Assembly: GCA_023512375.1 (NCBI GenBank)
Contig: JAILZS010000004.1
Coordinates: forward strand, 18,036-82,035
Direction of reading: 5' to 3'
Length of the DNA stretch: 64,000 nucleotides
Source of the DNA: Bacillota bacterium
GTDB taxonomy: Bacteria; Bacillota; Sulfobacillia; JAJZYS01; JAILZS01
Shown: positions 4,606 to 5,991 of the stretch, piece after piece
Layout of the letters: each line of letters opens with the position of its first letter
How positions within the stretch are numbered: position 1 is the stretch's first letter
Made by a program: the position numbers and the translations under genes
The notes under the pieces: generated by a model
The model's database searches: none
Told to the model about the DNA's origin: nothing
What the model saw: the letters and a program-made list of their open reading frames with translations, nothing else

Positions 4606-5991
4606 TCAGGAGGTGGGGTGCTGGACGGCGTCCACGAGAGCGGCCACCGTGGCCCGGAGCTCGTCGTTGGCAGCCATGAGCTCCTCGATCTTCGTGCACG
4701 CATGCAGGACGGTGGTGTGGTCGCGCCCGCCAAAGGCCTCGCCGATGCGGGGAAGGCTCGCGTCGGTAAGGCGGCGCGAAAGGTACATGGCCACCTGGCG
4801 GGGGAAGGCCACCGCACGTGTGCGGCTCTTCGCGCTCAGGGCCTCCGGGTCGATGCCGTAGTAGGCGGCCACCGCCGCCTGGATCATGGGGATGGTGACG
4901 AGCCGCTTTCGCTCCGGCGGGAAGAGGTCCTTCAGGAGCGACTGGGCGAGGGCCAAGGTCATCGGCTCGGCGTGGAGGGAGGCGTGGGCTGCGAGGCGGA
5001 TGAGGGCGCCCTCCAGCTCGCGGATGTTCGTCTCGACGCGCCGGGCGATGAAGACCAGGACATCGTCCGGGATGTCGATGCCTTCGAGCTGTGCCTTCTT
5101 CTTCAGAATCGCAACTCGCGTCTCAAAATCTGGTGGCTGGATGTCGGTGATCAAACCCCACTCAAAGCGCGAGCGAAGCCGCTCCTCCAACGTAGTAAAA
5201 TCCTTTGGAGGACGATCGGATGAGATGACAAGCTGCTTTTGTGCTCCGTGAAGTGCCTCAAATGTGTGAAAGAATTCCTCCTGCGTTCTTTCCTTTCCAG
5301 ATATAAATTGAATGTCGTCAATTAACAAAATGTCAATGTTTCGGTATCTCGCCCTGAATTCCGCTGTCTTGTCGTCACGAATGGCAGTGATGATCTGATT
5401 CGTGAATGTCTCGGACGTGACGTAGAGAACGCGGCTCTTGGGATGGAGGCTGCGCGCCATGTGGCCGATAGCGTGCATGAGGTGGGTCTTTCCCAGGCCT
5501 ACGCCGCCGTACACGAAGAGGGGATTGTAGGCGCGGGCCGGGTTCTGGGCCACGGCCTGGCAGGCGGCGTGGGCGAGACGGTTGGACGTGCCGACGACGA
5601 ATGTGTCGAAGGTGTAGCGGTCGCGGAGGGGACTTCCCACCTCGGCGGCCGCGTCCCAAGAGGGTTGGGGCGGCGGTTCCGGCGCCTCACGGCGGGCGTC
5701 GCGCGCCCTTGCGGCGGCGGTCTGGTGGCGGCGGGCCGAATCGGCGTCCACGACGAACTCGACGTTGACCTTGCGGGACGTGAGATTGCGCACCGTGTTG
5801 GCGACGACGCCGGCATAGCGGCTGCGTATGGTATCCCTTGCCATCTCGCTAGGAACGCCGATGATGAGCACGTCGTCGTTCATCTGCACGGGGTGCGTCG
5901 GGCGGATCCACGTTTCAAAGCTGGGTGTCGGGAGCTCGACCTCGAGCGCCTTGAGCGTGTCGTGCCAAAGGTCACCCAGGAAATCACGCAT
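4606..5991 (-). CDS. dnaA: Chromosomal replication initiator protein DnaA
   Basis: 461 aa: N-terminal [29 protein letters not shown], Walker A [15 protein letters not shown], Walker B LLIDDIQF, box VII [8 protein letters not shown], C-terminal DnaA-box binding domain ..[12 protein letters not shown]. Confidence 0.97.
   Translation of the reverse strand: [461 protein letters not shown]

Follow-up and report, generated by a model that had tools for sequence, protein, structure and literature searches.

An AT-shifted patch of synonymous sites within the dnaA gene of a GC-rich Sulfobacillia bacterium: a real feature that looks home-grown rather than imported

The dnaA gene of a GC-rich hot-spring bacterium of the class Sulfobacillia (Bacillota; GenBank assembly GCA_023512375.1) raises the question of how about 300 bp of its most conserved part came to be written, for nearly half of the degenerate codons, with A/T endings. 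The coding sequence (4606..5991, minus strand) lies in a 64,000-nt stretch of contig JAILZS010000004.1, hereafter the window, which falls within contig C34 of a source assembly of 104 contigs and 2.68 Mb, with 73.1% G+C and 93% completeness. An initial annotation of these letters had offered three readings of the patch: a tract imported from the dnaA of a low-GC Firmicute, a selected AT-rich element near the replication origin (oriC), or an assembly chimera. The results described below indicate that the patch is real and that it looks home-grown rather than imported. The explanation favoured here, held tentatively and at somewhat less than an even chance, takes the patch for native dnaA, inherited vertically, whose synonymous sites moved in place from G/C to A/T within this lineage, in connection with DNA opening beside the origin.

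The limits of the patch were determined by a two-change-point fit to the third codon positions of dnaA, which placed it at 5107..5409 (minus strand, codons 195-295), over the Walker B, sensor I and box VII region. The G+C fraction at third codon positions (GC3) was 0.515 inside and 0.878 outside, with a log-likelihood ratio (LLR) of 28.1 that was matched by none of 300 permutations. Total G+C was 46.5% in the patch and 67.9% in the remainder of the gene; the low-GC patch of the initial annotation is thus confirmed, its surroundings being slightly poorer in G+C than the ~70% given there. The four hand counts on which that description relied are exact (5101-5400, 46.7%; 5281-5340, 31.7%; 4981-5040, 73.3%; 5461-5520, 63.3%), the peptide cited is the translation of the open reading frame (ORF) 4606..5991, and the codon string cited corresponds to codons 219-235. 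A/T-ending codons make up 49 of the 100 degenerate codons of the patch, compared with 6.4 expected from the codon usage of the genome itself (z = 17.4). Elsewhere in the gene they had been described as almost absent, which overstates the case: they are rare, yet amount to 44 of 348. All seven leucine codons of the patch belong to types that jointly account for about 14% of native leucine codons. G+C at codon positions 1 and 2 is also lower in the patch (0.44 versus 0.58 outside it), owing to the encoded amino acids. The change is purely synonymous and leaves the protein unaltered.

The internal structure of the patch is uneven. Its AT-richest core lies at 5296..5343 (minus strand, codons 217-232), where 12 of the 16 codons are A/T-ending, TTA and ATA among them; this core is the centre of the opening site predicted below, and the lowest G+C per 100 bp (0.36) is found at 5250-5349. 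A native-looking island at 5137..5193 (minus strand, codons 267-285), with only 3 of 19 codons A/T-ending, separates the large 5′ block of the patch from a short one at its 3′ end (codons 286-295, with 7 of 10 A/T-ending). The ORF is intact, and its 461-aa product matches NCBIfam TIGR00362 (DnaA) with 570.3 bits, the cut-off being 343.9, over residues 9-453; precomputed Pfam matches are PF11638, PF00308 and PF08299. In an alignment of 16 DnaA sequences, the invariant columns include G162-T169, D225/D226 and R271-F276, which we take to be Walker A, Walker B and box VII, respectively. Both the AAA+ motifs and the C-terminal DNA-binding domain (PF08299) are intact.

Concerning the rarity of such a dip, the patch is the lowest 300-bp segment of the whole window (mean 72.7%, standard deviation 4.4), falls under the 0.1% quantile (0.52) of the 300-bp segments of the assembly (mean 73.1%, standard deviation 5.1), and is one of only three regions of the assembly that contain 100-bp segments with 40% G+C or less. 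Internal GC3 dips were also scanned genome-wide in coding-like ORFs, with the further condition that the DNA of the dip be AT-rich; without this condition, the scans picked up mostly out-of-frame ORFs that arise by read-through, as is usual in high-GC DNA, and these scans were not used. The patch ranked first among 13 candidates, the other 12 being mild or else situated in lower-GC contigs, at the ends of contigs or in one large helicase gene. Among 110 dnaA genes (that of the window, 29 from order- or class-level relatives and 80 from metagenome loci), its dip was the strongest, with an LLR of 27.6 and a runner-up of 12.6. The initial annotation had named the same dip in all close relatives, with congruent phylogeny, as what would speak against an import; the comparison was run on the 29 order- or class-level relatives, and none of them has a dip at the position of the patch.

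The idea that dnaA could be the sole gene of this genome with such a dip proved wrong, as weaker dips occur in the large helicase gene. This is a 1645-codon ORF of the DEAD/DEAH-box type (PF00270) at C16:21499-26433 (minus strand), in which GC3 falls locally over about 100 codons at a time, once between Walker A and the DEAH motif (to 0.33-0.60) and once over the helicase-C motifs at C16:23167-23496 (0.50 versus 0.77). Upstream there is a stretch of very AT-rich DNA, and the gene could be mosaic or foreign. At one end of contig C44 (C44:19117-20401), GC3 falls from about 0.8 to 0.33-0.5 within a periplasmic binding-protein gene, and the next gene, for a branched-chain permease, has GC3 0.27-0.6 and reaches the contig end, which may represent either foreign DNA or a chimeric end. 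Four other contigs (C13, C54, C91 and C36) have an overall G+C of 63-66% with many low-GC stretches, and may be mobile, foreign or mis-binned.

The first explanation to be considered is that two organisms' dnaA genes were joined in a conserved stretch during assembly or binning, as might happen in a fragmented and incomplete assembly such as this one. A DnaA homologue in a public contig from ENA (P0001, 508 aa) indeed carries a 43-residue internal duplication of the Walker B segment, in the same region as the patch, that is probably an assembly artefact. The window's dnaA was found in five public hot-spring metagenome runs (X1-X5) of two studies, X1-X4 belonging to one study that is possibly the source of the assembly and X5 to the second, and the contigs of four of these runs were compared over 4500-6100. 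The edge at 5107 is bridged by X1 record 3 (4976-5359, 1 difference), X3 record 12 (5054-5241, 1 difference) and X4 record 18 (4640-5361, 2 differences), and the edge at 5409 by X1 record 4 (5358-5853, 0 differences). In X5, a contig of 5,584 nt (record 24) covers 4500-6100 in one piece, patch included, with 20 differences (98.75% identity). Given the possible link of the X1-X4 study to the assembly, only that of X5 counts as independent support. Neither the reading frame nor the set of family-specific residues is interrupted at either edge, and the ends of the X1 contigs do not coincide with the edges. In X1, depth over the patch contig was 3.8, compared with 7.1 and 7.8 for its neighbours, a drop that was not repeated in X3 or X4; in X4, the bin 5364-5417 was uncovered. 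Coverage at this level is noisy, and nothing is inferred from either value. With the edges bridged in independent assemblies of four runs, a chimera is rejected as scarcely credible.

The X5 contig provides, in addition, a comparison between strains. Nine of its 20 differences from the window are listed, and four of these fall in the patch: codon 254 is CTT in the window and CTC in X5, codon 215 AGA and CGG (two letters), and codon 197 ACG and ACA. On these limited data, the patch is older than the split of the two strains, and its divergence is no greater and no smaller than that of its flanks.

The descent of the patch was compared with that of its flanks at the protein level. The patch-only search and the separate phylogenies suggested by the initial annotation were both carried out, and the same relatives are nearest in both parts. 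When residues 196-300 alone were searched against 5.8 billion proteins, the best matches were nine metagenome proteins (P0003-P0011), with 99, 96, 94, 93, 93, 92, 92, 90 and 90% identity; the next match outside this ten-member family reached 87%, and the proteins of Sulfobacillus, Thermaerobacter and Tepidanaerobacter were about 82-84% identical. The same nine proteins are the nearest over the full length (85-67% identity). The nearest relative, P0003, departs from the window's protein at 1 of 101 patch residues, at 7 of the 74 that precede the patch and at 23 of 160 in the C-terminal part. Among the relatives, other pairs whose flanks are about as diverged differ at 2-3 of 101 patch residues, and the regional differences scale together. 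Maximum-likelihood trees were built for the 101 columns of the patch and for the remaining 363, with 66 proteins (the top 70 matches minus P0001 and those shorter than 420 aa). In both trees the same 10-member group was recovered, with support values from the Shimodaira-Hasegawa-like approximate likelihood ratio test (SH-aLRT) of 91 for the patch and 95 for the rest, and the neighbours of the window's protein came in the same order, P0003 and then P0004. The conflict between patch and flank phylogenies expected of an imported tract is not seen in these protein trees. At the protein level, patch and flanks share one line of descent.

These results bear directly on an import from the dnaA of a distant low-GC Firmicute, which could explain a jump of about 21 G+C points limited to one stretch. 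In the patch, no protein from outside the family exceeds 87% identity, so a donor of that sort should have introduced at least 13 residue changes, where a single one is seen relative to P0003. The congruence of the two trees and the absence of a donor among the 104 dnaA loci compared, in which the best nucleotide identity to the patch was 70.6%, point the same way, and this reading is very improbable. An import that predated the family would presumably have lost its foreign composition long since, unless maintained by selection.

The search for a donor was extended in several directions, the comparisons at the DNA level covering relatives of up to 61% protein identity. No second copy of the patch was found in the assembly. 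In the 104 dnaA loci, third-position identity at identical residues was 0.52 at most, and the hot-spring runs also yielded pieces of other organisms' dnaA that overlap the patch, with an identity to it of about 78-82%. Of 210 genomes of the class, 197 gave a match, the best at 61% identity, and no family member was among them. A family-specific peptide pattern had four matches in 185,579 species genomes, none of which was in dnaA. A search of metagenome contigs with the whole DnaA protein was dominated by a universal DnaA peptide and returned, among the matches listed, only relatives of 54% identity or less. Among the runs listed, none contains only part of the gene; as coverage of the runs is partial, this is no evidence against a donor. 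Of the marks of an imported tract, a deviating composition is present; neither a donor nor a nucleotide match closer than that to relatives turned up in the collections searched, though an unsampled donor may exist. Concerning the relatives themselves, the dnaA genes of P0003-P0011 are predicted from amino-acid composition to have GC3 values of 0.85-0.93, a prediction calibrated on 109 dnaA genes (r = 0.78, root-mean-square error 0.14).

The position of the patch relative to the origin was examined next to its composition. Clusters of DnaA-box-like sites occur on both sides of dnaA, with eight sites of no more than two mismatches to the consensus in the dnaA-dnaN spacer (4429..4603) and three sites with one mismatch each upstream of dnaA (6120..6150), a layout that resembles a two-part origin. 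The patch lies between both clusters, 504 and 711 bp from the nearest sites. In a calculation of DNA opening over 2500-8500, run with a simplified single-bubble stress-induced model of our own making, the patch was the sole site with a predicted opening probability above 0.1, the origin spacers remaining below it; at 37 °C this prediction holds for superhelical densities of -0.05 and -0.06, whereas at 65 °C it holds from -0.04. In 21 of the 29 relatives, the lowest-GC 100-bp segment within dnaA is located at residues 176-245, which makes this region a natural starting point for a shift. When the whole locus is considered, the lowest segment lies in a spacer in all 29 relatives, and only in the present locus is it inside the gene (0.37, compared with 0.51 upstream and 0.60 downstream). 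The dnaA-dnaN spacer is without an AT-rich stretch, and its lowest 100-bp value, 0.60, exceeds that of every other locus compared. The supposition that this spacer had lost an AT-rich element was not borne out, the values of other high-GC relatives being close (0.49-0.57).

The in-place shift that we favour would proceed as follows. By virtue of its amino acids alone, the stretch around Walker B has the lowest G+C within dnaA, and in a hot-spring genome of 73% G+C it would therefore be the place where the helix opens most easily, midway between the two DnaA-box clusters. From there, two courses may be envisaged. Repeated strand opening may have driven a local, self-reinforcing mutation from GC to AT, through deamination or oxidation of the exposed bases; alternatively, an easily opened AT-rich site may have been selected for. 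Under either course, A/T-ending codons would replace G/C-ending ones as far as the protein permits. We infer both that the shift happened in place and that it is tied to strand opening or to the origin.

The codon pattern of the patch offers a clue to distinguish a shift of this kind from ordinary lower-GC codon usage. A/T endings are found at 24 of 39 four-fold degenerate sites (62%) and at 22 of 54 two-fold sites (41%), a split that is reversed in seven mid-GC relatives (odds ratios 2.33 versus 0.64, z = 2.96 in a post-hoc test); by this measure, the patch ranks first among 44 patch-equivalents of mid-composition dnaA genes. The split fits, only weakly, a shift still in progress better than the settled codon usage of a donor. 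As for the preferences within two-fold codons, the counts are too small to discriminate between the patch and the mid-GC relatives.

Several observations weigh against the in-place shift. It was reached by elimination, with the DNA compared only over the range of relatives given above. The edges of the patch match the most conserved block of the protein, where recombination of diverged genes would also be easiest. The dip is missing from every one of the 29 order- or class-level relatives, other high-GC ones included, so the proposed feedback is not general. The two-letter difference at codon 215 between the window and X5 looks more like an exchange of alleles than like point mutation. Some codons of the patch, namely AGA (twice), AGG, TTA and ATA, need first-position changes or transversions and resemble ordinary lower-GC usage. 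The balance of T and A endings at the 24 four-fold sites slightly favours mid-GC usage over transitions from native codons (log-likelihoods -15.8 and -18.1, respectively). The AT-richness is not maximal, with AAG in 4 of 4 lysine codons, GAC in 6 of 9 for aspartate and GAG in 6 of 9 for glutamate. Finally, there is no DnaA box with up to two mismatches in 4606-5991, no run of at least four DnaA-trio-like triplets in 4300-6300, and no promoter of the sigma-70 type (-35/-10 with a spacing of 16-18 nt) in the patch.

The most serious competitor of the in-place shift is a tract of gene conversion or homologous recombination, derived from an unsampled donor with lower-GC codons, either a very close relative or a copy of this lineage's dnaA carried by a phage or plasmid. 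Uptake would have occurred inside the most conserved block, and patchy repair may have split the tract in two. A tract of about 300 bp with an internal native-looking island at codons 267-285 is what such an event could leave, and its edges coincide with the conserved block. A GC3 of about 0.5 with AGA, TTA, ATA and TTG resembles ordinary mid-GC usage, and the two-letter codon difference between the strains is at an edge of the patch. The low-GC stretches in the C16 helicase gene and at the end of C44 show, besides, that lower-GC DNA does reach this genome. On the other hand, the donor must match the family to about 1 residue in 101, yet all nine known members look high-GC; in the hot-spring runs, only the contigs that bridge the edges are near-identical over the patch; no donor appeared in the 104 dnaA loci, the 210 class genomes or the pattern scan of the species genomes; and mid-GC relatives divide their A/T endings differently over four-fold and two-fold sites. 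Considering both sides, conversion from such a source seems unlikely, but it retains a substantial share of our belief. The case may be compared to the mosaic genes produced by recombination between species, as in the penicillin-binding-protein genes of Neisseria and Streptococcus, in which a short deviating tract is likewise found with the frame intact. In those genes, however, the tract carries donor residues and groups with the donor, while the dnaA patch groups with its own relatives, and no donor was found for it.

A stronger version of the link to initiation would make the patch a working part of a two-part oriC, that is, a DNA-opening or supercoil-sensing element lodged in the synonymous sites of the dnaA frame. 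The patch shares with the DNA unwinding element (DUE) of an oriC beside dnaA that it is the AT-richest and, by prediction, the least stable DNA of the origin region, and that it stands between two DnaA-box clusters. It differs from the usual DUE in lying inside a coding sequence and at a distance from the boxes, without a box or trio run of its own adjoining it. A passage in a 2018 study of the Campylobacter jejuni origin describes even a partial location of oriC in a coding region as unreported (PMC6052347). The patch may be such an element, but we give this no more than a small chance.

The possibility of a regulatory RNA or promoter was considered together with this. Two promoter-like sites were found in 3200-6400, both outside the patch: one at 6338-6366 (plus strand; TTGACA, 17 nt, TATACT; 11 of 12 matches), ahead of rpmH/rnpA, and the other at 5838-5865. 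A search of Rfam gave no known RNA family in the patch. The sole match was below threshold, to AsdA (RF02674) at 5445-5511 on the plus strand (21.4 bits against a gathering threshold of 52, E = 0.24), and it probably reflects the conserved coding sequence of Walker A. Antisense RNAs of dnaA, such as AsdA and one reported from Bacillus subtilis (PMC12112137), are comparable to the patch as regulatory elements that overlap the dnaA unit; here, however, the only Rfam match is that outside the patch. The reading of the initial annotation as a selected AT-rich element near oriC survives within the in-place shift preferred here, but in the patch itself no promoter, DnaA box, trio run or known RNA was found.

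Selection might also have acted on translation or on the messenger, if about 50 clustered rare codons slowed or limited the synthesis of DnaA or opened its mRNA. The dosage of DnaA is tightly controlled in bacteria. The codons concerned are certainly very rare in the genome (per 1000 codons, TTA 0.13, ATA 0.19 and AGA 0.38), and tRNAs matching rare codons are encoded (Leu-taa and Arg-tct). In the same tRNA search, ARAGORN predicted 51 tRNAs in the assembly, three of them called as tRNA-SeC(tca). A lower expression would not need, however, 100 contiguous codons within the most conserved block, and the relatives do without the dip, so a rare-codon cluster of this kind is improbable, with a slight chance at best. 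There were no RNA runs among the runs found to contain the gene. The TTA codon and the bldA tRNA of the high-GC Streptomyces are similar in that very rare, A/T-rich codons occur in a dosage-sensitive gene; bldA acts, however, through single codons, whereas about 50 are clustered in the dnaA patch.

The rest of the locus is conventional. The gene order is the usual rpmH-rnpA-yidD-yidC / dnaA-dnaN-recF, and dnaN (3238..4332, minus strand), downstream of dnaA, matches TIGR00663 with 176.9 bits (cut-off 137.65) and has a normal codon composition (GC3 0.86). The yidC gene (7155-7841) is also low in G+C, and was considered as a second patch; it was rejected because its low G+C stems from the amino-acid composition, its GC3 being 0.83. 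At 22118..23689 (plus strand), an ORF for a family-5 solute-binding protein (PF00496) has a 3′ end (23400-23700) with a G+C of 0.50-0.58; GC3 is only mildly down there (0.69 versus 0.91), so that the dip is mostly one of amino-acid composition.

An abrupt change of composition within a core gene is commonly taken for an import or an artefact, and for this patch both readings fail the tests run here. In practical terms, the curation of metagenome assemblies should not automatically discard such patches as chimeras. A shift that arose in place would offer a clean natural example of a force at the level of DNA rewriting about 50 synonymous sites within 300 bp, be it mutation driven by local melting or selection for an openable site, in an essential gene beside the origin. 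If the patch is functional, it would bear on how origins are opened in very GC-rich bacteria living at high temperature; and if it were truly an origin element, the gene for the initiator would carry its own unwinding site.

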